Shown here piece after piece: positions 5,466-36,494 of a stretch of DNA of 64,000 nucleotides. The DNA lies in assembly GCA_041440805.1 (NCBI GenBank), contig JASDVF010000050.1, forward strand, positions 77,012 to 141,011, given 5' to 3'. How positions within the stretch are numbered: position 1 is the stretch's first letter; every line of letters starts with the position of its first letter. Both the position numbers and the translations under genes were made by a program. The notes beneath the pieces were generated by a model, which worked only from the letters and a program-made list of their open reading frames with translations, had not been told where the DNA came from and did no database searches. This DNA is from Myxococcota bacterium. Its GTDB lineage: Bacteria; Myxococcota_A; UBA9160; UBA4427.

Positions 5466-6365
5466 CTAGCTCTCAGTAGAGCCTTCCATCGCCCGCCGAA
5501 GAGCCGGGTAGTCCTCGCATCCCGTCGCCGGAGTCACGATTTCGTTCCATCGCGACGTCCACGCCTCTCGAACGGCCGGCGTCATCTCGGCCCGGGGTCC
5601 CAAGGTTTTTCCCTCGCGAACCTTCGTGCTGCCTGCACCTTCGGGCAGGTTCATCGCGGAGTTGCGGTGCCTCTTAAGAAGGACATCCTCCCAGAGCGTC
5701 GGGTACCCCTTCATGAAATCGAGCTCGGCTTGGCGCGTCGCAAGTTCGATTCTCTCTTCATCACGAGCAAGATCCAAGAAATCGCTCACTCGTCTGACCG
5801 CAACAGTAAGATTCTCAACCACCGTCTCGTAACAAAGTGGAAGCACCTCGGGATCGTCCTTGTGCGCCCACCACGAGACGAGATGGTCCCAATAGTGATG
5901 CCGGCCATCGCGGGACAGAACGAAGTCCAGCGCGAACTCTTCGAACCCAATACTGCCGGGTTCAAAGAACCAGCCCGAAAAGAAGTGGTAGTGCGAGACG
6001 ATCACGGATTCAGGATCTCGGACAACCCAAATCGCGCGGCCTCCCTTAGGCAAAGCACCCCAGTCGAGATGGGTCTTGAAGGCACGCGGCTCGGCGCGCT
6101 GTGCAGCCGTCGCATCGATCCCTGTATCGACGGCCAACTCGATCCAAGGAACGACTTCCGAGATGTCTTCGAAGTCCATATCACCCCCCGTGCGCAGCCC
6201 ATGCACGATCTGCTGCAAGAGCGTCGTTCCGCTTTTCGCGAAGGTGGCTATGAACACATCCGTCGGCCGCGGCTGAAACGAAAGCCCCGCGAGCATGCCC
6301 TCACGCGTTGCGAAGCCCGCGAGTGCTTTCAGGAGTCCATCTACTGTTGTCGGTAAGCGGTACAT
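5466..6365 (-). CDS. PAPS-dependent sulfotransferase (Sulfotransfer_1-like)
   Basis: 5'-PSB-like motif TFAKSGTTLLQQIV and 3'-PB-like motif RDPESVIVSHYHF. Confidence 0.8.
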   Translation of the reverse strand: MYRLPTTVDGLLKALAGFATREGMLAGLSFQPRPTDVFIATFAKSGTTLLQQIVHGLRTGGDMDFEDISEVVPWIELAVDTGIDATAAQRAEPRAFKTHLDWGALPKGGRAIWVVRDPESVIVSHYHFFSGWFFEPGSIGFEEFALDFVLSRDGRHHYWDHLVSWWAHKDDPEVLPLCYETVVENLTVAVRRVSDFLDLARDEERIELATRQAELDFMKGYPTLWEDVLLKRHRNSAMNLPEGAGSTKVREGKTLGPRAEMTPAVREAWTSRWNEIVTPATGCEDYPALRRAMEGSTES

Positions 6366-6401
6366 CGAGAGATCTGGCCCTTTCGCGAATGAGTCTGCGA
6401 A

Positions 6402-7763
6402 TCAGTGGAACTCGATGCTGTCGGGAAGCGCCGATCCTGTAGCTTGATCGGCCAGAGGCTCGATCATGAAATAGGGGCGTTCAAAGACACTCCGGTCGCC
6501 ATTAGGCGCGAAGGTCGACGAGAAGGAACGAAAGACGAGGCCCTCAACGATCCCCTGGGCCAGATGCGGCGAGTAGCTGTTATTGAAAAGAATGTCGCCA
6601 GGCATGCTCTCATGCTGTTCGCCATCGACTCCGTAGATTACAGGGCCGCTTAACACATAGTAGAATTCGGGAATCACGTGACTATGCTCGACATAGGTCG
6701 ACCGCGCGCCCCACGCAGATTCAGAGAAGTTAAAATCCCAACGCCCATCGGGCCGGCTTGCTCGGAAGATCGCCTTGTGACGCGCGATCTGAATCATCTG
6801 CTCCGCGACTTCCAAGAGCGAGCCAAGATCATCCGAGAAAAAGAATCCGCCCTCCTTTAGAGTCTCGGCCGAAAGCCAAGAAATTTTGCTGTCGTGCCCA
6901 AATACGGAAACGCCGGGATAGAGCGGCTCATCCACATTGAAGGCCGCTTTCGCTGCGCGAAGACCGAAGGCCGCATCAGCGTATACCGGAACCGCTGCCG
7001 AAGGCGTGGAGTTCACAGCAGCCTCGACCGGACCATAGGCCTCGTCCACTCCGCCCCAGAAAAGATAGCCGTCTTCGAATTTCGCCTGCTCGGGCTGAAC
7101 ATGCTGATTCGCGCCTGTTAGGTAGTAGCCGGCATCAATATACGACTGGTCGCCTCCCGGAGCCCAACGGATCCACAACAAACGAAGAGGTTCCTCCGCC
7201 GAGGCTTCCAAACTTCGCACGACATAAGGCTCGAGCTTCACTGTAGATCCCGTCGTCACGCGAGCGTTTTCGTTCCCGACACGAATCTCTCCGCGTCCCG
7301 AGATCACGATATACGCACCCGGCGCACCATCGGCATGCCCCGGTAGGACGGCCTCTGGTCCAAGCACCAGCTGACTGATTTTGAGATCGGGATGATCGAA
7401 GGCCAGCCGCAAACGCATCGCGCCTTTAAGCTGCTCGACACGGTCCGGTGTCGACTCTCGAAGCCCGTCCCAATCGATTGGGAACAGATTTTCCAGATCG
7501 CCCCATGGCGTTCCCGTCGTTTGATGACGCGCGCCGTAGCGCGGAAGGGGCCGCGGCGAATCAGGATCAGCCATGTCGCGTTCGCGGCGCTCCCTGAATT
7601 CCGCGTACTTGTAGCCGTAGGGGTCATTTGGGTCATCGATCGCTGTGTAGATCGCGGGGTCCACTTCATCGGCCGCGACCCCCGCCGACATCTCAGCCTC
7701 GTCGCCAGGCTGACCGAGCATCGCGCAGCCTCCGAGAAGAAACAGAAGCGATCCGGAAGCCAT
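6402..7763 (-). CDS. Bicupin-domain lipoprotein, unknown substrate
   Basis: Lipobox LLFLLGGC directly after ATG 7763; the listed start 7859 is an alternative. Two cupin-like barrels (GHADGAPGAYIVISGRGEIRV; HSHVIPEFYYVLSGPVIYGVDGE). Confidence 0.6.
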   Translation of the reverse strand: MASGSLLFLLGGCAMLGQPGDEAEMSAGVAADEVDPAIYTAIDDPNDPYGYKYAEFRERRERDMADPDSPRPLPRYGARHQTTGTPWGDLENLFPIDWDGLRESTPDRVEQLKGAMRLRLAFDHPDLKISQLVLGPEAVLPGHADGAPGAYIVISGRGEIRVGNENARVTTGSTVKLEPYVVRSLEASAEEPLRLLWIRWAPGGDQSYIDAGYYLTGANQHVQPEQAKFEDGYLFWGGVDEAYGPVEAAVNSTPSAAVPVYADAAFGLRAAKAAFNVDEPLYPGVSVFGHDSKISWLSAETLKEGGFFFSDDLGSLLEVAEQMIQIARHKAIFRASRPDGRWDFNFSESAWGARSTYVEHSHVIPEFYYVLSGPVIYGVDGEQHESMPGDILFNNSYSPHLAQGIVEGLVFRSFSSTFAPNGDRSVFERPYFMIEPLADQATGSALPDSIEFH

Positions 7764-7942
7764 AAAGTTCGGAAATCGGCTCGTAAACGAAGTTAATGAG
7801 ATCACTAGGGCCCCGGCACCGCGGGATGCGGTCTTCGCGTCGCATCGTCGCACGAGCATCCTCTTATGTCATGCCACGACTCCCAATCCGGTACCGCTGG
7901 TCAGCTTCGCCATTTTGTGGAAAGGTCATTGATGGAGGGCCT

Positions 7943-8944
7943 ATGTCATCGACCGCACTCGCTGCACCCAGCCATAGCTACCGCAGCGAAGAAGATCTCC
8001 AAGAGCAGTACCACGCACAGGGTTGGACCGACGGTCTCCCGATCGTCGCCCCTACGCCGGATCGCGTCGAAGCCTTCCTCGCGGAAGCGGGCCTGGCCCC
8101 AGATCTCCTCCTGGGTGAAGTCCCAACCCGCGAAGTTCGGGTCACGGCTGAACACGCCGCCATCAATGCAGTGATGGCGGGTTGCCGCCCCGAATATTTC
8201 CCCGTCGTCGTGGCCGCCCTTCGCGCGCACCTCCACGAGAAGGGCAACTGCCATAGCACGACCGGCACGCTATCCGGCGCAGTACAGACCGTGTTAGTCA
8301 ATGGCCCCATTAGAACAAGAATTGGCATCGAATGCGGTGCTGGATGCATGGGCCCGGGCTTCCGCGCCAACGCCACAATCGGACGCGCACTCCGCCTCGT
8401 GATTCGCAACGTGTGTCGCGCCATCCCCGGTGTACTGGACCGCGCAAGTTTCTCGAGTCCCCATCGCTTCAGCTTCTGTTTTGGTGAGAACGAAGAAGAG
8501 AGCAACTGGACGCCTCTCCACGTCGAACGTGGCTATCAGCTTGCTCAGAGCACAGTCACTGTTCACTCCGTCATGACCGTGACTTCCACGATCGACTTCA
8601 CCTCGCGCACCCCGGAAGCCCTGCTCGATTCGATGCTCCACACTCTTAGACAAAACGGAATTGCAGGGGACGATTTCGTCGGCGACGACGCCAACGTGAT
8701 GCTCGTCGTCGGCCCCGAACATCGCCGCTATTTCGACCGCGCCGGTTGGTCCAAGGAAGACATGCGCGACTACCTCTTCCCCCGGTTCGCAGAAGACCCG
8801 GGTCCGACTGGACGAATCGTCGGGCTCCCGCGCAAGGACGGAATTCTGATTGCTGCAGCCGGCGGCGACGGCATGGCTCAGACTTGGGTGTTGTTGCCGC
8901 ATCTCGCTGTCGCCATAACAGAAGCGATCGACGTACCGAACTAA
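7943..8944 (+). CDS. Uncharacterised conserved protein, partner of UGSC selenoprotein (copy 1)
   Basis: 333 codons from ATG 7943, with GGAGG 5-9 nt upstream. Paralog of 31294-32415, sharing the blocks GW(T/G)DGLP(I/L)V.PT..RVEAFL, A(I/V)NAVMAGCRP, GPG(F/C)RANA..GRALRLV and GPEH. No family name recognised. Confidence 0.7.
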   Translation: MSSTALAAPSHSYRSEEDLQEQYHAQGWTDGLPIVAPTPDRVEAFLAEAGLAPDLLLGEVPTREVRVTAEHAAINAVMAGCRPEYFPVVVAALRAHLHEKGNCHSTTGTLSGAVQTVLVNGPIRTRIGIECGAGCMGPGFRANATIGRALRLVIRNVCRAIPGVLDRASFSSPHRFSFCFGENEEESNWTPLHVERGYQLAQSTVTVHSVMTVTSTIDFTSRTPEALLDSMLHTLRQNGIAGDDFVGDDANVMLVVGPEHRRYFDRAGWSKEDMRDYLFPRFAEDPGPTGRIVGLPRKDGILIAAAGGDGMAQTWVLLPHLAVAITEAIDVPN

Positions 8945-9005: not shown

Positions 9006-9554
9006 ATGGACGAAAAAACACTGATCGCCCTCGATCCTACGAGCGGCCCCCTTGAGCGCAAAGACGATCGGGCGCTTCCCGCCCGCGTCGCTTCGCTTTC
9101 GGGGCATGTACTCGGCCTCGTGGCCAATGGACTCGGTGAATCCAAGTCCTTCCTGGACGCCGTGTACGGGGAGCTCACGAGCGCAGACGACACCCTCGCC
9201 GCGGTGCGTGTCCTAAAGCCGAGTGTCTCCGTCGCGCCGGAGCGACCGGATTGGGCTCGGCTCACCTCGGAGACCTCGCTGGCGATTGCCGGCTTCGGGG
9301 GTTGAGGCAGCTGCTCTGCGCGCAGTTTGCGCGACGCGATCGAGCTCGAGTGGGCGGGAATTCCGACCGCCGCCATCATCCACAAAGCCGTCGAGGGCTC
9401 TGCCCAAGCGATGGCTCGACTATCGGGAGTGCCCGATTTCGAGTTCATCCTGATCGACTACCCGGCCATCCCGACGGCCATCTGGAATCAAGATGAAATT
9501 CGCGATCTGGCACGAGAGGTCGCTCCCAAAGTGCGTGCCCGTCTGACGAGCTGA
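9006..9554 (+). CDS. UGSC-motif selenoprotein (copy 1); TGA 9303-9305 read as selenocysteine (residue 100 of 182)
   Basis: Listed ORFs 8991-9305 and 9327-9554 are in the same frame, separated only by TGA plus 7 sense codons. Read-through gives ..GFGG-U-GSCSARSLRD... The paralog at 32484-33011 has TGA at the homologous column in the same U-G-S-C context. A SECIS-like hairpin lies downstream. AAGGA is 6 nt upstream of ATG 9006. Confidence 0.8.
9319..9333 (+). promoter_or_regulatory. SECIS-like recoding hairpin for UGA 9303-9305
   Basis: CGCGCA-GUU-UGCGCG: a 5-6 bp GC-rich stem with G-U in the apical loop, starting 13 nt after the UGA. Confidence 0.6.
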
Positions 9555-28216: not shown

Positions 28217-29143
28217 ATGATCGAGATAGAGCCCCTCACGAACGGCATCGCCGCTCGGGTACATGGCATTGACCTGGCCTCGGAGCTAGCGGGCAGCCTC
28301 GAGAAGCAAGCCGGCGCACAGATCGAGGCTGCGTGGCAACAACATCCGATCCTCGTCTTCGGGGATCAAAATGCACTCACCACGGAAGCCCAGGTCGCGT
28401 TCGTCGAGGGTTTTGCGAAGGTGATCGAAGAGCGCCTCCCCGGGGACCAGCATTCCTTCGTGTCGAATCAAGATGGCCACGGTCTCGATAACATGACCGA
28501 GGGCTACCGCGAGGGCCCTCTCACGCCGCATATGGACTACACCTACACGCCCTTTCCGGCAGACGTGATTTCGCTCTTCGCCGTCGACGTCCCCGAGAAC
28601 GGAACGGCGACGCGTTTCTATGACAACGCCCGGCCTCTCAAAGTAATGCCGCGGGCACTCAGGGCTCAGATCGAGGCCTACACGATCTTTTGCGCCCATG
28701 ATCTGGCCGCCATGAAACCCGACGCTCGCCCGGCCTTCGAAGGCCGAACGAATCCGGCGGCGCCAACGCAAAGCCACATCTGGCCGATGGTCCGCTCACA
28801 CCCGAAGCGCCGCGACTACGAGACCCTTGTGTGCACGCTGCAACAGACAGAACGCATCATGGAACTCTCGGACGAAGAGCGCGGCGATCCGAAAAGTCGG
28901 GCGATGCTCACGAGAATCTTCGACGAATATTTGTATGTCCCTGAGAACGAATACGTCCACCAATGGGAAGTGGGCGACTTGGTTGTATGGGACAACCTCG
29001 GCGTCCAGCACGCGCGCGACGCATGTCCTCCGTCCGAAGGCGCACGAAATTTCAGGCGCGTCGCGGGCTGCGATGCCGGAAATGCAATCGAAGATACGGT
29101 TGCATTTCTCGGCCTCGCAGCCGCGTCCGACGCGTTCTCTTAG
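28217..29143 (+). CDS. TauD/TfdA-family Fe(II)/2-oxoglutarate dioxygenase
   Basis: TauD-like layout with HMDYTY (HxD) and a distal His region (VVWDNLGVQHAR). Confidence 0.8.
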   Translation: MIEIEPLTNGIAARVHGIDLASELAGSLEKQAGAQIEAAWQQHPILVFGDQNALTTEAQVAFVEGFAKVIEERLPGDQHSFVSNQDGHGLDNMTEGYREGPLTPHMDYTYTPFPADVISLFAVDVPENGTATRFYDNARPLKVMPRALRAQIEAYTIFCAHDLAAMKPDARPAFEGRTNPAAPTQSHIWPMVRSHPKRRDYETLVCTLQQTERIMELSDEERGDPKSRAMLTRIFDEYLYVPENEYVHQWEVGDLVVWDNLGVQHARDACPPSEGARNFRRVAGCDAGNAIEDTVAFLGLAAASDAFS

Positions 29144-29197: not shown

Positions 29198-29644
29198 CTA
29201 TTCGACAGGCTCGAGGACCACGACGGGGATCACCCGATCCCCCGCGCTCACCTTGTAAGCCGCGTAGGGCGGATAGATTTCTTGGAGTTCTGCCCAAAGT
29301 CGTTCGCGCTCGTCGCCCTCGGCGATTCGCGCACGAGCAGAGACGGGCTTCGCCCCAACCATCAATTCGCAAGCGGGATTCGCTTCGAGGTTTAGGAACC
29401 AGATCGGGTGGTTCGGCATGCCGCCCTTCGAGGCGATGATCACGTAATTGCCGTCGATCGCTTTGTAGATCAACGGAATCGACCGCGGCTCGCCACTCTT
29501 CCGTCCGGTTGTGGTGATCAGAAGCGTGGGCAGCATTCCCTCGCCCCCGGCCTCCGCCGAATCCCACATATGCGCCTTTTCCGGGTCTGTGCGATAGAGC
29601 TCGATGTGCTTTGCGATCCAAGGTACTTCGGCGAAAGTGGCCAT
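29198..29644 (-). CDS. Nitroreductase-family deazaflavin (F420)-dependent oxidoreductase (DUF385)
   Basis: LLITTTGRKSGEPRSIPLIY..GNYVIIASKGGMPNHPIWFLNLEANP is the family signature as I remember it. Confidence 0.8.
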   Translation of the reverse strand: MATFAEVPWIAKHIELYRTDPEKAHMWDSAEAGGEGMLPTLLITTTGRKSGEPRSIPLIYKAIDGNYVIIASKGGMPNHPIWFLNLEANPACELMVGAKPVSARARIAEGDERERLWAELQEIYPPYAAYKVSAGDRVIPVVVLEPVE

Positions 29645-29962: not shown

Positions 29963-31168
29963 ATGAGCGATCCGATCATCGTCATTTCCTCCGACACCCA
30001 CGCCGGCAACTCCGTCGAGGGCTACCGCGAATACCTCGACACAAAACATCAGGCGCTCTTCGACGAATGGCGCGGTTCGTACAAGAACCCGCAGAAGAAG
30101 CACATAGGATCCAAGAAGCACAAGAACTGGGACGATGCCGAGCGCATGGGCGACATGCAGACCGAAGGCGTCGTCGGCGAGATCGTCTTCCCGAATACGG
30201 TTCCGCCCTTCTTCCGCTCGAGCGTGCTCATCTGCGGCAACCCCCGCCCCGAAGACTATTTGATGCGCCTCGAAGGTATTCGCGCGCATAACAGATGGCT
30301 CAGCGAATGGTGCGGCGAATTCCCAGCCCAGCGCGCCGGCATCGGCCTCGTCTATCTGAACGACATCGACGAAGCGATTAAAGACATCGAGTGGATCGCC
30401 AAGAACAACTTGCGCGGCGGTGTCCTGCTCCCGCACGTTCCCGACGACTGCACGGGCTACATCAAGCCGCTCTATCACCCCGACTACGACCCTATGTGGG
30501 CACTTCTCGAAGAGACGGGCCTCGTCGTGAATCACCACGGCGGCACGGGCTCCCCAGACTACGGACGCCTCCCCGTCTCCCTTCCGATTCGACTGATCGA
30601 AACCGGCTTCTTCTCAACCCGAAGCTATAGCCAGCTACTTCTGTCCGGCGTCTTCCACCGCTTCCCGAAGCTCAAGTACATCATCACCGAGTCCGGATGC
30701 GCCTGGGTACCGGAAACCCTGCAGCGCCTCGACATGGCCTGGAAGCGCATCTCTTCAGGCGCGGTCGGCGAGTTCCAGTTCGCGGAGGGTGTCACGACGC
30801 CCGAGCCGCCGAGCTTCTACGCAAAGCAGAACTGCTACTACGGTGCGAGTTCGGCCTCCCCGCCGGAGCTCAAGGATCGCGACGTGATCGGCACAGAGCG
30901 TATTCTCTGGGGCAGCGATTATCCCCACTACGAAGGCACCTACCCCGATACCCGCTTGGCGTTGCGGCACACGTTCAACACGTGCGGCGAGGACGATACG
31001 CGGGCGATGCTCGGGCTGAATGCCGCCAAGCTCTACGATTTCGATCTCGAAGCCCTCAAGCCAATCTCGGATAAGTGCGGACCGACTTGGGACGAACTGA
31101 GCGTGCCGCTCGCGCCCGAAGAGTTTCCCACGGACACCCACACGAACGCGTTCCGCACACTCGACTGA
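29963..31168 (+). CDS. Amidohydrolase-2 (ACMSD-like metal-dependent hydrolase/decarboxylase)
   Basis: VISSDTHAG metal motif near the N-terminus and ILWGSDYPHYEG near the C-terminus. Start at ATG 29963. Confidence 0.85.
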   Translation: MSDPIIVISSDTHAGNSVEGYREYLDTKHQALFDEWRGSYKNPQKKHIGSKKHKNWDDAERMGDMQTEGVVGEIVFPNTVPPFFRSSVLICGNPRPEDYLMRLEGIRAHNRWLSEWCGEFPAQRAGIGLVYLNDIDEAIKDIEWIAKNNLRGGVLLPHVPDDCTGYIKPLYHPDYDPMWALLEETGLVVNHHGGTGSPDYGRLPVSLPIRLIETGFFSTRSYSQLLLSGVFHRFPKLKYIITESGCAWVPETLQRLDMAWKRISSGAVGEFQFAEGVTTPEPPSFYAKQNCYYGASSASPPELKDRDVIGTERILWGSDYPHYEGTYPDTRLALRHTFNTCGEDDTRAMLGLNAAKLYDFDLEALKPISDKCGPTWDELSVPLAPEEFPTDTHTNAFRTLD

Positions 31169-31293
31169 GGTCTCTCGCCTCTTTTTTTAGGGGCGGTGCC
31201 TCAACTGAGGACGCACAGTAGTAAAATGTTAGGCGGTCGCGTCGACGTGAATGCACGTCGGCGCGCATGCACATAGTCGACCAAGGAGATGGC

Positions 31294-32415
31294 ATGGCCG
31301 ATTCGGGCGAAATCGAATGTGAAGACGATGTTTGCGCCCTTCCGGGTGCGACCCTCGAATCCTTCGAATCGGCGCGGGTCTCGCCGGACGTTAAAATTCC
31401 CGAAGGTGATTTCGAGGCGTGGATGGATCTCGCCGACACACGCGGCTGGGGGGACGGCCTTCCGCTCGTGCCTCCGACCGAGGCTCGGGTCGAAGCCTTC
31501 CTCGAAAAGCTGCCCCGTCAGATTGATCCTGATGCAGTCGTCGCAGTCCTGCCGCCCCGCGGCGGACTCGTCACGCGACGACTCCTCGCAGTCAACGCCG
31601 TAATGGCTGGCTGTCGCCCCAACATGCTCCCAGTTCTCACGACCGCCGTCCGCGGACTCGCCTTCCCGGAAATCAATCTTCGCGGCATCAACGCGACGAC
31701 TCATCCGGTGGCTCCCCTCATCCTGGTTCATGGCGCCGCGACGGACGAGCTCGGCTTCAATGCCGGGCTAGGCGCCTTCGGCCCCGGCTGTCGCGCGAAT
31801 GCCTCCGTCGGCCGAGCTCTTAGACTCGTCCTCATGAACATCGCGGGCGCGCGCCCAGGAGCCGGCGATGCCGCAACTCAAGGACAGCCCTCGAAATACA
31901 GCTACTGCGCCGCCGAGAATTGCGCCGAGAGCCCCTGGGAAAGCTATCCGGAAAGCCTCGGCCTTCGAGCCCCGAGCGCTGTCACCGTCGCTTGCGGTGA
32001 GAATCCGCATAACGTCCAGGATCACGATGTTCGCTCGCCAATTCATACGCTCGAGCAAATCGCGAGCACGATGCTGACCCTGGGCTCGAATAACGCTCCG
32101 GTCTCGAGTGCCGAATGGTTCGTTTTTCTCGGCCCCGAGCACGCCGAGGCAATCGCAGCCGACGGCTTTTCACGAAAAGACGTGCAGGATTTCCTCTTCG
32201 AAAATGCGCGGCTTCCCATGTCGCGATTCCGGCGCGCCTTCGAAGTCACTCAATACGCTGAATGGGAAGACGCGCTCCCGGATGACGGTATGAAGCCGAT
32301 CATGCGCGATCGCGACCTCATCAAAGTGATGGTCGTAGGCGGCGCTGGAAAACACTCTTGCGTAGTGCCGAGCTGGGGCATGACCGAAAGCGCCACACTG
32401 CCCCTAGAGCCCTAA
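31294..32415 (+). CDS. Uncharacterised conserved protein, partner of UGSC selenoprotein (copy 2)
   Basis: 373 codons from ATG 31294, with AAGGAG 6 nt upstream. Paralog of 7943-8944 (GWGDGLPLVPPTEARVEAFL, AVNAVMAGCRP, GPGCRANASVGRALRLV, GPEHA). Confidence 0.7.
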   Translation: MADSGEIECEDDVCALPGATLESFESARVSPDVKIPEGDFEAWMDLADTRGWGDGLPLVPPTEARVEAFLEKLPRQIDPDAVVAVLPPRGGLVTRRLLAVNAVMAGCRPNMLPVLTTAVRGLAFPEINLRGINATTHPVAPLILVHGAATDELGFNAGLGAFGPGCRANASVGRALRLVLMNIAGARPGAGDAATQGQPSKYSYCAAENCAESPWESYPESLGLRAPSAVTVACGENPHNVQDHDVRSPIHTLEQIASTMLTLGSNNAPVSSAEWFVFLGPEHAEAIAADGFSRKDVQDFLFENARLPMSRFRRAFEVTQYAEWEDALPDDGMKPIMRDRDLIKVMVVGGAGKHSCVVPSWGMTESATLPLEP

Positions 32416-32483: not shown

Positions 32484-33011
32484 ATGTCGTCGACCTTGAT
32501 CTACTCTCCCGAGGGACATACGGACGCACTCCTCGAACGCACACCGCGAACCTCTATCAAAAAGCTCGCAGGTCTTCGCATTGGCGTCCTCGACAACGGC
32601 AAGGCAGGCGCGGATCACCTGCTAGGCAGGATGGGCGCAGAGCTCGCAAAGAAGACCGGTGGAATTTACGTTGGCTGCTTCCGCAAGCAGACCGCCGCCA
32701 CGCCCTGTGAGACCGAGCTGATCGATCGCCTCGCCAAGGAAGTCGAGGTCGTCCTCACGGGTACCGCTGATTGAGGGAGCTGCACGTCGTGGAGTCTCCA
32801 CGACACGAAATCCCTTGAAGCCCGAGGCGTCGCCACGGTCGTCGTCGCGAGCGAAGCCTTTCGCGATCTCGCAGATCAGATGGCGAGGGAGCTACTCTTT
32901 CCTGATGCGCGCCGAATCATCGTCCCGCACCCGATCGGCGGCACACCCGGCGCAACCCTGGATGCATGGGCAGACGCGGCACTGGACGCGATCCTCGAAC
33001 AGCTCCGTTAG
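32484..33011 (+). CDS. UGSC-motif selenoprotein (copy 2); TGA 32772-32774 read as selenocysteine (residue 97 of 175)
   Basis: ORF 32358-32774 ends ..LTGTAD at the TGA. The same frame stays open to TAG 33009-33011 and encodes GSCTSWSLHDTKSLEARGVATVVVASEAF...ILEQLR, which is homologous to the C-terminal half of copy 1. That half is absent from the ORF track because it has no Met. A SECIS-like hairpin starts 11 nt after the UGA. Confidence 0.8.
32786..32804 (+). promoter_or_regulatory. SECIS-like recoding hairpin for UGA 32772-32774
   Basis: GUCGUGG-AGUCU-CCACGAC: a perfect 7-bp stem and 5-nt loop containing G-U, with an 11-nt spacer after the UGA. Confidence 0.65.
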
Positions 33012-33210: not shown

Positions 33211-33918
33211 CTAGCGTCGGCGAACCGTGGCCAGGCCAGCGAGACCGAGGCCCATCAGCAGGGCGGTGCCCGGCTCCGGGACGACCGTCAGCGCGAAGGT
33301 GTCGCCGGTTGAGGCGATCTCGTTTCCCTGGAAGTCCAGAGCGAGAACCGAGAACTGCAGGTTCGCGACGGCGCCTTGGTCCGCATACGCGAACACGTTT
33401 TGGAGCGTGATCTGGAAGTGGATGTCGCCACCCGTGACGAGGCTGCCACCGATACCGTAGTCGGTCAGGCCATCGCCATCCGCACCGGAAGGACTAATCC
33501 CGTCGAACATGTTGACGGTGTACGCCTGCGGGTTGAGGTGGTTGATGGAGAAGCGTTCAACCGCATTCGTACCATTGTTATTGTCGATCGAGCCAGAGAT
33601 GATAGTTCCGTCGCTAAGGGGATCAATACCGAGAGACTCTGCGACAACGTTGCTGGCCCCCAGTTGAAGGCCAAAATCGCGGACGCCGGTCGCGTCCGCC
33701 AGGTCCATACCCGTCAAGTCGGCCGAGAGGCCGAAGATCTGGGGCTCCGTTCCGTCGAAGGTCATGCGAAGGTCGAACGTGACCGTGTCGCCGACGGCAA
33801 GAGTGCCACCAGCACCGCCACCGGTTGCCTGGACGACTTCAATGCCTAGAGCGGATGCCATTGACGGTATGGCCAAGAGGGTCGCGGCCAGCGCGAGTGC
33901 CTTGGTGAATCGAATCAT
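33211..33918 (-). CDS. PEP-CTERM sorting-domain secreted protein
   Basis: Signal peptide MIRFTKALALAATLLAIPSMASA and C-terminal VPEPGTALLMGLGLAGLATVRRR (PEP motif, TM helix, Arg cluster). Confidence 0.85.
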   Translation of the reverse strand: MIRFTKALALAATLLAIPSMASALGIEVVQATGGGAGGTLAVGDTVTFDLRMTFDGTEPQIFGLSADLTGMDLADATGVRDFGLQLGASNVVAESLGIDPLSDGTIISGSIDNNNGTNAVERFSINHLNPQAYTVNMFDGISPSGADGDGLTDYGIGGSLVTGGDIHFQITLQNVFAYADQGAVANLQFSVLALDFQGNEIASTGDTFALTVVPEPGTALLMGLGLAGLATVRRR

Positions 33919-35240: not shown

Positions 35241-36494
35241 TTAGCTAATCGGACCGCTCGGAGTGAACCGGATCGGGAGCGTGGCGAGCCCGGCGACATT
35301 CCCCGCGTGCACAACACTCACGCCTAACTCATCAACTTCGTAGTCCGGAAGTCGCTTGTGAATCTCTTCCATCGCGACCCGCGCTTCCAACCGCGCGAGA
35401 CGAGCCCCCAGACAAAAGTGAACGCCAAAACCGAAGGCTAGGTGCTGGCTCATCACACGATTGATATCGAAGCGGCCCGGATCCTCGAAGCGCCTGGGAT
35501 CATGATTCGCAGCGCCAATCGAAAGTAAGACGCGATCCCCTTCTGGAATCGTCACACCGTGCCGCTCGACGTCACGGGTCGTTGCGCGAACCATATATTG
35601 CGTCGGGCTCCGAAAACGAAGGGACTCTTCGATCGCCCCGGGAATCTTGCTTGGGTCCAAGATGATCTCGGCGCGCTGATCGGGATGCCTCGACAGCTGG
35701 TGAATGGTGTTCGCAATCAGCTTTTCAGTTGTCTCGTTCCCGCCGGAGATCAACAGAAAACAGAAGCCCAAGATCTCGCTGTCCTCGAGTCGTCGCCCGT
35801 CGAGTTCCGCTCCGATGAGTGCTGAGACCAGATCCTCCGCCGGTTGCTTTCGCTTCGCCTTGATAAGGCCTGCGAAGTAGCGGAGAAGATTCCCCGAGGC
35901 TTCGCTCGCGGCAGGCGAAATCGCCGACACGCCGTCTTCGCGGTGCATCATGGTCTCGGTCCAAATTCGAAGCGAACTGTGATCTTCCTGCGGCACGCCT
36001 AGCAAAGTTGAAATCACATCCGAGGGAAGGAGTGCCGCGAACCGCTCGATCAAATCACATTCACCTTCCTCGACCAGTTGGTCAAGGAAGCCAGTCGTGA
36101 GGGCTCGCACTCGCGGCTCAAGCGCCCCCACACGCTTCGGATTGAAAGCACGGACGATGAGCTTGCGGAGTTTCGTTTGCCGCGGCGGATCCATTCCGAT
36201 CATAGACGGCGCGCTCCCGCGCCCAACCTCTTCCAAAGCGATTCCGCGAGTCGAAGTGAAGTTCTCCCAATCTCGGTACCCCTCGAGAACGTCGTCGAAA
36301 CGCGACAAAGTCCAGAAGCCCATCTCTTCATTGTGGTAGCAGGGTGCTTCTTCGCGAAGGCGCGCGTAGGTCGGATAGGGATCCTCATGCATCTCGTAGG
36401 CGAAAGGATTAAACGAGAGCAGCTCAGACATCGATCGAATCTCCGTATATTTCTCGAAGAGAGGGGATCCTCGAGTGTAGTCCTTCGAATCCAA
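35241..36494 (-). CDS. Cytochrome P450
   Basis: Heme loop FGFGVHFCLGARLA and ExxR (EESLRFRS). Confidence 0.9.
   Translation of the reverse strand: MDSKDYTRGSPLFEKYTEIRSMSELLSFNPFAYEMHEDPYPTYARLREEAPCYHNEEMGFWTLSRFDDVLEGYRDWENFTSTRGIALEEVGRGSAPSMIGMDPPRQTKLRKLIVRAFNPKRVGALEPRVRALTTGFLDQLVEEGECDLIERFAALLPSDVISTLLGVPQEDHSSLRIWTETMMHREDGVSAISPAASEASGNLLRYFAGLIKAKRKQPAEDLVSALIGAELDGRRLEDSEILGFCFLLISGGNETTEKLIANTIHQLSRHPDQRAEIILDPSKIPGAIEESLRFRSPTQYMVRATTRDVERHGVTIPEGDRVLLSIGAANHDPRRFEDPGRFDINRVMSQHLAFGFGVHFCLGARLARLEARVAMEEIHKRLPDYEVDELGVSVVHAGNVAGLATLPIRFTPSGPIS

Follow-up and report, generated by a model that had tools for sequence, protein, structure and literature searches.

Introduction

Reductases in which a small-molecule-binding subunit with an essential cysteine is paired with a U-x-x-C selenoprotein are found in amino-acid-fermenting anaerobes, in the Prd and Grd systems (PrdA/PrdB, GrdE/GrdB, GrdG/GrdF and GrdI/GrdH). 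In clostridial grd operons, trxB and trxA are embedded as well. In the Prd system, PrdA with its Cys-derived pyruvoyl group and PrdB with its selenocysteine (Sec), which is residue 151 in the C. difficile protein, are jointly catalytically competent (PMC11229817). A different arrangement is that of AhpF/AhpC and the Trx-dependent reductases Msr and ArsC, where a small redox domain relays electrons from a flavoprotein disulfide reductase to the Cys enzyme at the end of the chain.

The selenoprotein UGSC is among the most abundant selenoproteins of ocean metagenomes and has been listed since 2007-2008 (PMC2398784). A 2026 review places it among the prokaryotic selenoproteins with biological functions that are largely uncharacterised (PMC13188914). 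In ocean metagenome reads, a conserved domain called 'Unknown_1' was found fused to UGSC; some aquatic organisms have this domain unfused (Zhang and Gladyshev 2008, PMC2398784). Here we analyse a gene, referred to below as the target, that neighbours a UGSC gene in a 64-kb stretch of DNA (the window, 64,000 nucleotides in all). We lean towards the view that the two proteins form a cytoplasmic Sec/Cys-dependent reductase, in which the target is the larger subunit and binds the substrate or is catalytic, with UGSC as the small subunit. This offers a concrete, testable model for UGSC, with a partner of about 340 aa that always accompanies it or is fused to it, a wiring to the thioredoxin system and a probable remote kinship with selenoprotein B.

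Results and Discussion

The target gene, its paralog and their UGSC neighbours

The features of the window that are relevant to this analysis are collected in Table 1. The target reading frame is open at 31267/31294-32415, and 31294 is the start used in the first-pass annotation. This start (MADSGEIECEDDVCALPG...) has the sequence AAGGAG five bases upstream as a ribosome binding site, and the length of a database protein that is 99% identical to the target (P0001, 373 aa) agrees with it. The mean Kyte-Doolittle hydropathy over 19 residues peaks at only 1.28, and therefore neither a transmembrane helix nor a signal peptide is indicated. The target sequence contains no P-loop, and its two GxGxx[GA] strings both fall in segments that are modelled without helix or strand. 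The earlier description of a protein lacking signal peptide, transmembrane helix, Rossmann and P-loop motifs thus holds.

A tblastn search of the window returned a single other copy of the family, preceded by a GGAGG ribosome binding site ahead of 7943. The two proteins share 35.5% identity over 273 aa (97 of 273 positions in the local alignment). All four sequence blocks that the first reading had quoted as common to the paralogs were recovered in both copies: the first reads GWGDGLPLVPPTEARVEAFL in the target and GWTDGLPIVAPTPDRVEAFL in copy 1, the second AVNAVMAGCRPNMLPV and AINAVMAGCRPEYFPV, the third GPGCRANASVGRALRLV and GPGFRANATIGRALRLV, while the fourth, GPEH, is found in both alike. 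To these we can add a second conserved cysteine, C205, in a C-x-x-E208 motif common to both paralogs. The acidic, Cys-bearing N-terminal tail that had been noted as an extra of copy 2 is indeed absent from copy 1 in the alignment. It is predicted to be disordered by AlphaFold2, and its motif, C-x-[DE]-D-[VI]-C-x-L-P-G-A, is conserved and clade-specific: the full motif is present in nearly all of the roughly 38 closest relatives, and a relaxed version, C-x(3-5)-C-x-L-P-G, is found in 41 of the 120 database proteins closest to the target. The presence of two paralogs within 64 kb, among variable catabolic genes, is a pattern typical of substrate-specialised catabolic enzymes.

Table 1. Coordinates of the target gene, its paralog and associated features in the window.
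Feature	Coordinates	Strand	Remarks
Paralog (copy 1)	7943..8944	+	333 aa; same conserved blocks, no Cys tail; tblastn E 7.5e-43
UGSC copy 1	9006..9554	+	3' of paralog; alternative start 8991; in-frame TGA 9303-9305, motif G-U-G-S-C
Amidohydro_2 family gene	29966..31168	+	upstream of target; PF04909 E 6.5e-27
Target gene (copy 2)	31294..32415	+	373 aa + stop; uncurated family partnering UGSC selenoprotein
N-terminal acidic tail	31294..31350	+	residues 1-19; motif C9-E-D-D-V-C14-A-L-P-G-A; pLDDT <50 at residues 1-8 and 10-19
Cys107 codon	31612..31614	+	motif NAVMAG-C-RP; 3-residue loop between helices 95-105 and 109-122 (model)
Cys205 codon	31906..31908	+	Y-C-A-A-E-N; three residues ahead of near-invariant Glu208
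UGSC copy 2	32484..33011	+	68-nt gap 3' of target; in-frame TGA 32772-32774 = Sec, motif D-U-G-S-C
SECIS-like hairpin	32773..32816	+	directly 3' of UGSC copy 2 Sec codon; predicted from folding

Both paralogs are followed by a UGSC gene. The read-through product of UGSC copy 2, in which the Sec is residue 97, matches Pfam PF24696 (E 4.3e-41) and NCBIfam NF041046 (E 5.3e-37, above the cut-off). UGSC copy 1 matches PF24696 with E 7.9e-34 and scores 76.9 bits with NF041046, under the cut-off of that model. The putative SECIS hairpin of copy 2 has a minimum free energy of -23.4 kcal/mol (z -2.28 against shuffled sequences), with an 8-bp inner stem beginning 14 nt past the UGA. For copy 1, folding of the whole segment 3' of the TGA gave no SECIS better than shuffled sequences (z +1.61); a short GC hairpin after this TGA is visible by eye only.

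A large family without a convincing match to known families or folds

The first-pass annotation could not name a family for these proteins and suggested profile searches and structure prediction followed by fold comparison. These have now been carried out, and no family or fold was identified. With the target and copy 1 as queries, Pfam and NCBIfam gave no significant match, only noise (ComJ and a 2Fe-2S ferredoxin model, E >0.02), and 83 diverse members scanned singly against the same two collections revealed no recurrent family. Sequence and profile searches of the PDB with the target gave chance matches only (NSE3 and DnaB, E >=0.24), and a literature search with the motif strings of the family found nothing. 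The AlphaFold2 model of the target is confident (pLDDT 92.8, pTM 0.91), and Foldseek comparison of this model with the PDB returned nothing convincing (best E 2.7e-3, TM <=0.33), which suggests that the modelled fold has no counterpart among PDB structures. When clustered at 50% identity, the family yields more than 4,500 clusters, spread over many bacterial phyla and some archaea, yet it matches no model in the searched Pfam and NCBIfam releases. This therefore represents a sizeable annotation gap.

Several candidate assignments were considered and dropped. Class I fumarate hydratases, Toblerone-fold hydrolases, YjgF, PurM-like proteins and CyuA all appeared among the Foldseek matches and were rejected as fold assignments at TM <=0.33. 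For the Toblerone-fold cyclic amide hydrolases (AtzD/barbiturase), which have a YjgF-like fold repeated three times and Ser-Lys dyads, the values were E >=4.9e-3 and TM 0.17-0.24, with no Pfam match; they and the class I (Fe-S) fumarate hydratases are the best, though weak, structural matches, and neither the catalytic Cys triad nor the Ser-Lys sets of these enzymes are conserved in the target. A thioredoxin-fold thiol oxidoreductase was rejected since no such fold was matched in the PDB and the target has no core CxxC; its only closely spaced Cys pair is a CX4C in the disordered tail. Finally, none of the 83 members gave a sequence match to the Gly_reductase (GrdE/PrdA proprotein) family PF09338 at E <=1 in Pfam or NCBIfam. 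Among all these searches, there was no confident match to a family outside redox chemistry, the finding that would have spoken against the first reading.

The fumarate hydratases deserve a closer look, because they bear on the idea that a metal or Fe-S centre lies between the two subunits, ligated by Cys107 and Cys205 on the target side and by the Sec and Cys on the UGSC side. The target would then be a hydro-lyase-type or metallo-redox enzyme, and the weak resemblances to fumarate hydratase and CyuA would be echoes of distant ancestry. The two proteins do offer four potential ligands between them, and class I fumarate hydratases are the top Foldseek matches (prob 0.54-0.57), with CyuA further down. 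The superpositions themselves are poor, at TM 0.25-0.33 and RMSD 14-19 Å. Alignment of the family profile with E. coli FumA by hhalign gave a probability of 0.14%, and the sole aligned piece places the MAGC-P of the target family on 'TAACPPYH' of FumA. Membership in the class I fumarate hydratase or Fe-S hydro-lyase families was rejected at TM <0.5, the target having only two conserved cysteines against the three cluster ligands of those families. Many fused UGSC-like domains lack both of their potential ligands, and the fusions with thioredoxin-system modules described below point to dithiol/selenol chemistry. We therefore regard such a centre as very improbable.

Residue conservation suggests an active site

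The hallmark blocks of the family (DGLPxVPPT, NAVMAGC-P, RANAxxGRAxRL, C-x-x-E-N and PEH) extend across a domain of about 330 aa, are present in both paralogs, and are near-invariant in samples of 83, 99 and 150 sequences. Among 150 representatives at 50% identity, conservation in target numbering was 100% for R174, 99% for E208 and D54, 97% for N169, 96% for W215, 95% for D192, 93% for T136, 91% for C107 and 87% for C205, and it was similar in 99 genomic copies, of which 98 have Cys at position 107. The neighbouring G106 is invariant in an alignment of 83 sequences. C107 and C205 are both present in 121 of the 150 representatives, while 10 have C107 without C205, a loose co-variation. In the model, the polar residues D54, T62, C107, T136, N169, R174, D192, C205, E208 and E282/H283 are located at helix N-termini, strand ends and loops.

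The initial reading of the family was that of an enzyme, probably redox, as opposed to a structural protein. The placement of the polar residues, together with the UGSC pairing and the recurrence of TrxR, Trx and FTR modules described below, is indirectly consistent with it, and nothing was found to show that the conserved blocks are purely a structural core. One could also imagine that the target has a stabilising role for UGSC, as its scaffold, chaperone or regulator, all activity residing on UGSC; pairing and fusion by themselves are no proof of catalysis. Such a role would leave it hard to see why D54, R174 and E208 are kept at 99-100% across bacteria and archaea although overall identity is just 35-40%. 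The target domain is, moreover, twice as large as UGSC; in fusions it is conserved more strongly than the UGSC redox motif, and in one protein (P0227) it is tandemly duplicated. We consider a non-catalytic target to have hardly any likelihood.

The target is an obligate gene neighbour or fusion partner of UGSC

Genomic loci encoding the target family were fetched from many phyla, and in 78 of the 82 a UGSC gene was found on the same strand. In most cases it is the direct neighbour of the target gene, and in none is it more than about 2 kb from it. All four loci without a UGSC gene are cut by contig ends. Most of the UGSC genes contain an in-frame TGA, natural Cys forms being those of Embleya, Sphingomonas and Candidimonas, and the order of the two genes varies, UGSC-target or target-UGSC. 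In addition, 55 of the 150 representatives are fused to UGSC: the UGSC domain is N-terminal and full in 22, starts just past the Sec codon in 30, and is C-terminal and ends at the Sec codon in 3. The target is thus an obligate gene neighbour or fusion partner of UGSC. The abundance of these fusions fits the description of 'Unknown_1', and the target family is probably the same as that domain; the earlier report gave no fold, operon analysis or link to TrxR, FTR or GrdB (PMC2398784).

A natural fusion of 560 aa (P0138) was modelled with high confidence (pLDDT 93.2, pTM 0.93), and the model suggests that the target and UGSC domains are packed in a fixed arrangement. Only the UGSC half of this fusion was matched by Foldseek, to generic flavodoxin-like folds. 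In the model, UGSC has a flavodoxin-like alpha/beta fold with the Sec at a strand-to-helix junction. Of 24 long forms with an N-terminal extension, about 10 have lost the U/C-x-x-C motif with the target Cys retained; the target may therefore need no redox-active domain fused to it, or rely on a separate one.

Association with the thioredoxin system

The target/UGSC pair is associated with the thioredoxin system. In one protein (P0127) the target is fused to a thioredoxin reductase (TrxR) with a CAVC redox motif, and in another (P0195) to the catalytic beta domain of ferredoxin:thioredoxin reductase (FTR). In about 9-10 of the 82 loci, the pair has a TrxR-like gene next to it in the same orientation. 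According to the RefSeq annotation, Arthrobacter has the order trxB-trxA-target-UGSC with a 4-nt overlap, and Variovorax has trxB-SBP-SDR-target-UGSC-like. The embedding of trxB and trxA in some target operons recalls the grd operons, while the fusion of TrxR-like modules to pathway partners recalls AhpF/AhpC and the Trx-dependent reductases. Unlike these latter enzymes, the target lacks a core CxxC as well as a thioredoxin or peroxiredoxin fold, and the mediator would be flavodoxin-like and not Trx-fold.

In an alternative scheme, like that of a thiol peroxidase or sulfoxide reductase, the redox chemistry would take place on the target: the substrate, which might be a disulfide, a peroxide or an oxidised S, N or O compound, would oxidise Cys107, alone or jointly with Cys205, and UGSC would be only a dedicated thioredoxin-like recycler, as in AhpF/AhpC or Trx/Msr. 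The TrxR, Trx and FTR associations fit a relay from TrxR via UGSC to the target. Two cysteines of the target are conserved, C107 being situated just ahead of a helix N-terminus, and the target Cys is more conserved than the fused UGSC motif; the generic flavodoxin-like fold of UGSC, with the position of its Sec, is also compatible with a recycling role. Against this stand the loose co-variation of C107 and C205, the lack of fold similarity between the target and known thiol oxidoreductases, and the fact that the sole recurrent remote similarity of UGSC is to selenoprotein B of substrate-cleaving reductases. On balance, we find it rather unlikely that the target alone reacts with the substrate.

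UGSC as a probable remote relative of selenoprotein B

When 22 UGSC members were compared with NCBIfam, weak matches recurred to the GrdB model TIGR01917 (11 members, best E 1e-5), GrdF (10), TIGR01918 (10), GrdH (8) and PrdB (4). No other NCBIfam family was recurrent among these members, including Trx, Grx and Prx. All scores against the GrdB, GrdF, GrdH and PrdB models are far under the family cut-offs, and the link is seen with NCBIfam models only, the Pfam GRDB model giving no match to UGSC. The similarity covers the Sec-containing stretch: compared as ranges, residues 78-123 of the UGSC of the window, spanning Sec 97, align with positions 129-174 of the PrdB profile. These recurrent weak matches suggest that UGSC is a remote relative of selenoprotein B. 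There are evident differences. UGSC has about 170 aa, compared to about 240 aa for PrdB and 430 aa for GrdB; no GrdA, GrdC or GrdD genes were seen with target/UGSC; and, in contrast to Grd and Prd with their anaerobic hosts, the target is encoded mainly in aerobic or marine/soil lineages and in haloarchaea. No sequence similarity between the target and GrdE or PrdA could be detected, and therefore the analogy with the Grd and Prd systems comes from the UGSC side only.

If the analogy were taken literally, the target might be expected to carry a pyruvoyl group. Self-processing between Gly106 and Cys107 by cysteinolysis, as at T420-C421 of PrdA, would leave an N-terminal pyruvoyl on the C-terminal fragment. 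An amine substrate would form a Schiff base with this group and then be attacked by the UGSC Sec. Pyruvoyl enzymes of the reductase class rely on a Cys and have selenoprotein B as their partner subunit (PMC11229817), to which UGSC is remotely similar. The invariance of G106 and the 91-99% conservation of C107 would be in keeping with such a site. A Gly-Ser pair is the processing site in PanD and PSD, which also counts in favour. What makes this variant improbable in our view is the missing homology to GrdE/PrdA, the modelled position of C107 between two helices as opposed to the usual strand-turn-strand site, and the second conserved Cys and the Arg/Glu/Asp set, which it leaves unexplained; also, among the larger ORFs around the pair no gene for a PrdH-like maturation protein was noticed.

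For the two-subunit reductase that we favour, the following mechanism can be proposed. A pocket formed by D54, T62, N101, C107, T136, N169, R174, D192, C205, E208, W215 and E282/H283 of the target would bind a small-molecule substrate. The Sec of the U-G-S-C motif would be the nucleophile or reductant, acting on the substrate in this pocket or on an intermediate attached to Cys107/Cys205, and the Cys of U-x-x-C would resolve the product, giving a selenenylsulfide. The latter could be re-reduced by NADPH via TrxR and Trx where these are present, or by an FTR-like Fe-S module in some lineages. The logic would be that of D-proline reductase (PrdA/PrdB) and of glycine reductase protein B (GrdE/GrdB), with a different fold of the partner subunit. 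We infer the contact between the Sec and the Cys pocket of the target, the direction of electron flow and the type of reaction.

It is tempting to speculate further, if only tentatively, that the target is the catalytic subunit of an unrecognised and globally abundant class of Se-dependent reductases, with a fold absent from the PDB, a miniaturised selenoprotein-B-like UGSC and direct recycling by the thioredoxin system. If so, a selenoprotein family that ranks among the most abundant in the ocean would gain a function, and Stickland-type Sec chemistry (reductive C-N, C-S or C-O cleavage beside a carboxyl or carbonyl group) would reach aerobic bacteria and haloarchaea. The cultured and sequenced hosts in which genetics or biochemistry could be attempted are Arthrobacter sp. 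ERGS1:01, Variovorax sp. SRS16, Paracoccus versutus, Natrinema, Embleya, Robertmurraya and Candidimonas.

Other neighbours of the pair

No third universally conserved neighbour was found among the 82 loci, and the neighbours conserved across the surveyed loci gave no consistent clue to the substrate. The commonest were SDR (16 loci), luciferase-like (14) and CaiB-type CoA-transferase (14) genes, followed by Bug/TTT binding protein (13), acyl-CoA dehydrogenase (12) and TrxR (about 10). Phosphosulfolactate synthase adjoins the pair in two plasmids; it was not recurrent and was dropped. Amidohydrolase-superfamily or DUF6282 genes recur beside the pair in other genomes. In the window, a terminator-like hairpin (31167-31181) lies between the Amidohydro_2 gene and the target, and this gene is possibly a pathway neighbour outside the core pair.

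The target gene, its tail and its paralog

The target (copy 2) is an open reading frame of 373 codons preceded, at 5 bases, by an AAGGAG Shine-Dalgarno sequence; the start chosen in the first-pass annotation is also where P0001, a database protein with 99% identity, begins. Its sole paralog in the window (copy 1) shares 35.5% identity with it over 273 residues (tblastn, E 7.5e-43). The first-pass annotation had described four blocks common to both copies (GW(T/G)DGLP..., A(I/V)NAVMAGC..., GPG(F/C)RANA... and GPEH), a tail peculiar to copy 2, and a protein with no signal peptide, TM helix or P-loop. Local alignment recovered all four blocks, the tail MADSGEIECEDDVCALPG is absent from copy 1, nothing in the target is hydrophobic enough for a signal peptide or TM helix (maximum 19-residue hydropathy 1.28), and no P-loop was found in it; the description is accurate and the feature real. 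The tail is disordered and acidic. Its motif, C-x-[DE]-D-[VI]-C-x-L-P-G-A, is clade-specific and strongly conserved, and remoter relatives retain just C-D-L-P-G-A of it. The tail could serve in docking, or as a mobile redox arm.

Coordinates of the features discussed (L-numbers are loci fetched from other genomes)
Feature	Source	Position	Strand	Detail
Target, copy 2	window	31294-32415	+	
Tail of copy 2	window	31294-31350	+	
Paralog, copy 1	window	7943-8944	+	
UGSC copy 2	window	32484-33011	+	TGA 32772-32774, ...GTAD-U-GSCTSWS...
UGSC copy 1	window	9006-9554	+	TGA 9303-9305, ...GFGG-U-GSCSARS...
Terminator-like hairpin	window	31167-31181	+	with T-run
Sulfotransferase and bicupin	window	5466-7859	-	PF00685; 485 aa
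TauD-family dioxygenase	window	28217-29143		
F420H2-dependent quinone-reductase-like gene	window	29198-29644	-	
PEP-CTERM-anchored secreted protein	window	33211-33918	-	
Cytochrome P450	window	35241-36494	-	
UGSC gene	L029	7402-7917		in-frame TGA
DUF6282 gene	L011	5833-6666		
DUF6282 gene	L021	1091-1900		
DUF6282 gene	L027	3037-3852		
DUF6282 gene	L085	7054-7887		
DUF6282 gene	L061	10983-11807		
Candidate operon	L086	6335-9504		574-aa ORF

The target is paired with, or fused to, a UGSC selenoprotein

At 46-68 nt 3' of each window paralog lies an open reading frame that runs through an in-frame TGA, and which standard ORF calling cuts short (ends 32774 and 9305). Both match the Pfam 'UGSC family' PF24696 (E 4e-41 for copy 2, 8e-34 for copy 1), and copy 2 also scores above the NCBIfam NF041046 cut-off. 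A SECIS-like hairpin follows the TGA of UGSC copy 2 (z -2.28); at the copy 1 TGA the whole segment folds no better than shuffles, and a short GC hairpin is seen by eye only. A tblastn survey placed a same-strand UGSC gene in 78 of 82 other loci, directly adjacent to the target in most, up- or downstream, and at the farthest about 2 kb away; in the four loci without one (L018, L049, L069, L082) the target is at or near a contig end. The U position is TGA in most UGSC genes, with Cys in place of Sec in Embleya, Sphingomonas, Methanobacteriaceae, Parapusillimonas and Candidimonas. One UGSC gene with an in-frame TGA adjoins a target homolog on a contig labelled Candidatus Nitrosocosmicus (L029), which may be mis-binned, since this thaumarchaeal group is not known to use selenocysteine.

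Local HMM searches located a UGSC domain in the same chain in 55 of 150 representatives of the target family (50% identity). It is N-terminal and full-length in 22; in 30 it begins just past the Sec codon, and these are Sec-containing fusions shortened by gene callers; in the remaining 3 it is C-terminal and ends at the Sec codon. Compared by description, they fit the 'UGSC/Unknown_1 fusion' that Zhang and Gladyshev reported but did not analyse further (PMC2398784). The AlphaFold2 model of a natural fusion, P0138 (560 aa; pLDDT 93.2, pTM 0.93), suggests that its two domains pack in a defined way. Another family protein, P0227, carries the target domain duplicated in tandem.

Probable remote kinship of UGSC with selenoprotein B

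The UGSC half of the P0138 model is a five-stranded beta-alpha unit, with the Cys at the Sec place predicted where strand 3 ends and helix 3 starts; its Foldseek matches are generic flavodoxin-like folds only (MdaB, NQO1, flavodiiron flavodoxin domains). When 22 UGSC proteins were scanned against NCBIfam, recurrent matches were to one family group only, all sub-threshold: glycine reductase selenoprotein B (TIGR01917, 11 of 22, best E 1e-5), GrdF (NF040794, 10, 1e-4), the selenoprotein B family (TIGR01918, 10, 3.4e-4), GrdH (NF040795, 8, 5.6e-4) and PrdB (TIGR04483, 4, 0.012). The Pfam GRDB model found no match in UGSC. Residues 78-123 of the window UGSC, Sec97 among them, align with positions 129-174 of the PrdB profile at the level of the stretch only; the Sec of C. 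difficile PrdB is residue 151 (PMC11229817). We regard UGSC as probably a miniaturised and distant relative of that part of selenoprotein B which bears the Sec.

A two-subunit reductase as the best-supported reading

Links to the thioredoxin system were found in both fusions and gene neighbourhoods. P0127 joins the target to a thioredoxin reductase (Pyr_redox_2, E 6e-41, redox motif CAVC), and P0195 to a ferredoxin:thioredoxin reductase catalytic domain (PF02943, E 2e-21). Clustering of neighbouring ORFs gave a TrxR-like gene (CALCDG motif) in about 10 of the 82 loci, on the same strand every time and mostly just upstream. RefSeq annotation reads trxB-trxA-[target]-[UGSC family (seleno)protein] in Arthrobacter sp. 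ERGS1:01, where trxA and the target overlap by 4 nt, and trxB-SBP-SDR-[target]-[169-aa hypothetical protein in the usual UGSC place] in Variovorax sp. SRS16.

The best-supported reading makes the target the subunit that binds the substrate or performs catalysis in a two-subunit Sec/Cys-dependent reductase. UGSC would be its selenol/thiol subunit, and recycling of the selenenylsulfide would fall to TrxR, acting with or without Trx, or to an FTR-like module. Among known systems the nearest are D-proline reductase (PrdA+PrdB) and protein B of the glycine, sarcosine and betaine reductases. There the partner subunit holds the substrate that Sec attacks, and the partner's essential Cys becomes a pyruvoyl group (PMC11229817). 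The target is like the GrdE/PrdA partner subunit in gene context, but fails membership of that family because there is no sequence match. The pair would belong among selenoprotein-B-type reductases, with a non-homologous partner subunit. Three sub-models are considered. By analogy with Grd and Prd, the Sec of UGSC may attack a substrate bound in the target. By analogy with AhpF/AhpC, Cys107/Cys205 (copy 2 numbering) may be the redox centre and UGSC a mere dedicated reductant. In the third, self-processing at Gly106-Cys107 may yield a pyruvoyl group. Among 24 representatives with long N-terminal extensions, some not confirmed as UGSC domains, CxxC is kept in 12, reduced to its first Cys in 2 and lost in about 10 (P0168, P0208, P0222, P0239 and P0249 included); Cys107 is retained in 23, and P0208 has neither the U/C-x-x-C motif nor Cys107.

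Conserved residues and fold of the target

Conservation was scored in the 150 representatives and in 99 genomic copies, respectively: R174 (100% and 100%), E208 and D54 (99% and 100% each), W215 (96% and 86%), D192 (95% and 94%), T136 (93% and 94%), C107 (91% and 99%) and H283 (86% and 88%), with N169 (97%) and C205 (87%) scored in the representatives. In the DSSP string of the target model, DGLPxVPPT is a loop whose end N-caps helix 63-70. G106-C107-R108 is a three-residue connection from helix 95-105 to helix 109-122, which would set the C107 thiol at a helix N-terminus. RANAxxGRAxRL begins helix 167-182, C205-x-x-E208 lies on strand 205-207 and just past it, and PEH begins helix 281-289. 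Alpha/beta enzymes usually have their catalytic residues at such positions. A purely structural role of the target is less likely than the reductase reading, as is a metal or Fe-S centre at the subunit interface.

That no family could be named for the target was borne out: Pfam-A and NCBIfam gave no significant match for either paralog, 83 diverse members scanned singly at E up to 1 gave no recurrent family, and single-sequence and profile searches of PDB sequences returned chance matches only. The AlphaFold2 model (83-sequence alignment; pLDDT 92.8, pTM 0.91) is very confident, with disorder confined to residues 1-19, and Foldseek found nothing in the PDB at E 1e-3 or better. Its best matches, class I fumarate hydratases and Toblerone-fold cyclic amide hydrolases (TM 0.17-0.33, RMSD 11-19 Å), were rejected, as was kinship with E. 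coli FumA (hhalign probability 0.14% with the target family profile). The predicted fold is so far new, as far as the PDB shows, and the family is uncurated and without a solved structure. A reservation on the new fold is that PrdA and GrdE themselves apparently had no solved structure in 2024, when AlphaFold models were used (PMC11229817).

Spread of the family

The target gene is an ordinary family member with numerous close relatives. For the family as a whole, upwards of 4,163 clusters were found at the 90% identity level, and an exhaustive HMMER search gave 4,563 representatives at the 50% level (E 1e-3 or better), of which 945 had E below 1e-30. At least 595 loci matched in GTDB species genomes. 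Eighty loci fetched from that scan included MAGs of Myxococcota, Methylomirabilota/Rokubacteria, Acidobacteriota and Dehalococcoidia, as well as Actinomycetota (Acidimicrobiales, Embleya), Beta-, Alpha- and Gammaproteobacteria (Candidimonas, Parapusillimonas, Sphingomonas, Reyranella), Bacillota (Robertmurraya) and Archaea (Methanobacteriaceae). Annotated plasmids of Natrinema, Halalkalicoccus, Haladaptatus, Paracoccus, Variovorax, Arthrobacter, Roseovarius and Sporomusa carry it too; there, and wherever source names are given, members are called 'hypothetical protein'. The family has a functional tie to UGSC, which ranks among the most abundant selenoproteins of the ocean, and a 2026 review lists UGSC among selenoproteins whose biological functions are largely uncharacterised (PMC13188914). 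The model for the pair is clear and testable, and cultured hosts exist.

Other neighbours

Besides UGSC, no general neighbour was found among the 82 loci. SDRs, luciferase-like monooxygenases, CaiB-type CoA-transferases, acyl-CoA dehydrogenases, enoyl-CoA hydratases, transporters and amidohydrolase-superfamily proteins (DUF6282 included) occur in 5-16 loci each. In the window, copy 2 neighbours an SDR, a Rieske oxygenase, a TauD-family dioxygenase and an Amidohydro_2 protein, and copy 1 a sulfotransferase, a bicupin and an SDR. Such catabolic neighbourhoods are variable, and the substrate cannot be inferred from them. An amidohydrolase-like DUF6282 gene separates UGSC from the target at three loci and adjoins the pair at two others, as a third component that occurs now and then.

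A terminator-like hairpin stands straight after the Amidohydro_2 gene upstream of copy 2, so the target-UGSC pair may be transcribed on its own; the gap 5' of the target yielded no sigma-70-like promoter. The 26-36 kb stretch of the window is rich in oxygenases and reductases (SDR, Rieske, TauD, P450) and includes an F420H2-dependent quinone-reductase-like gene; 3' of the copy 2 pair are genes for a PEP-CTERM-anchored secreted protein and the P450. The sulfotransferase, the bicupin (a marginal DMSP-lyase-like match), TauD and the phosphosulfolactate synthase genes near the pair on Arthrobacter and Natrinema plasmids (L084, L085) give a weak hint of organosulfur metabolism, a pattern without recurrence in the 82 loci. 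On a Sporomusa termitida plasmid (L086), a 'hypothetical' ORF combines the target domain with about 220 further residues at its N-terminus. Genes for an FAD-dependent oxidoreductase and an MFS transporter come directly after it, under a divergent LysR regulator, which makes a candidate compact operon in an anaerobe.
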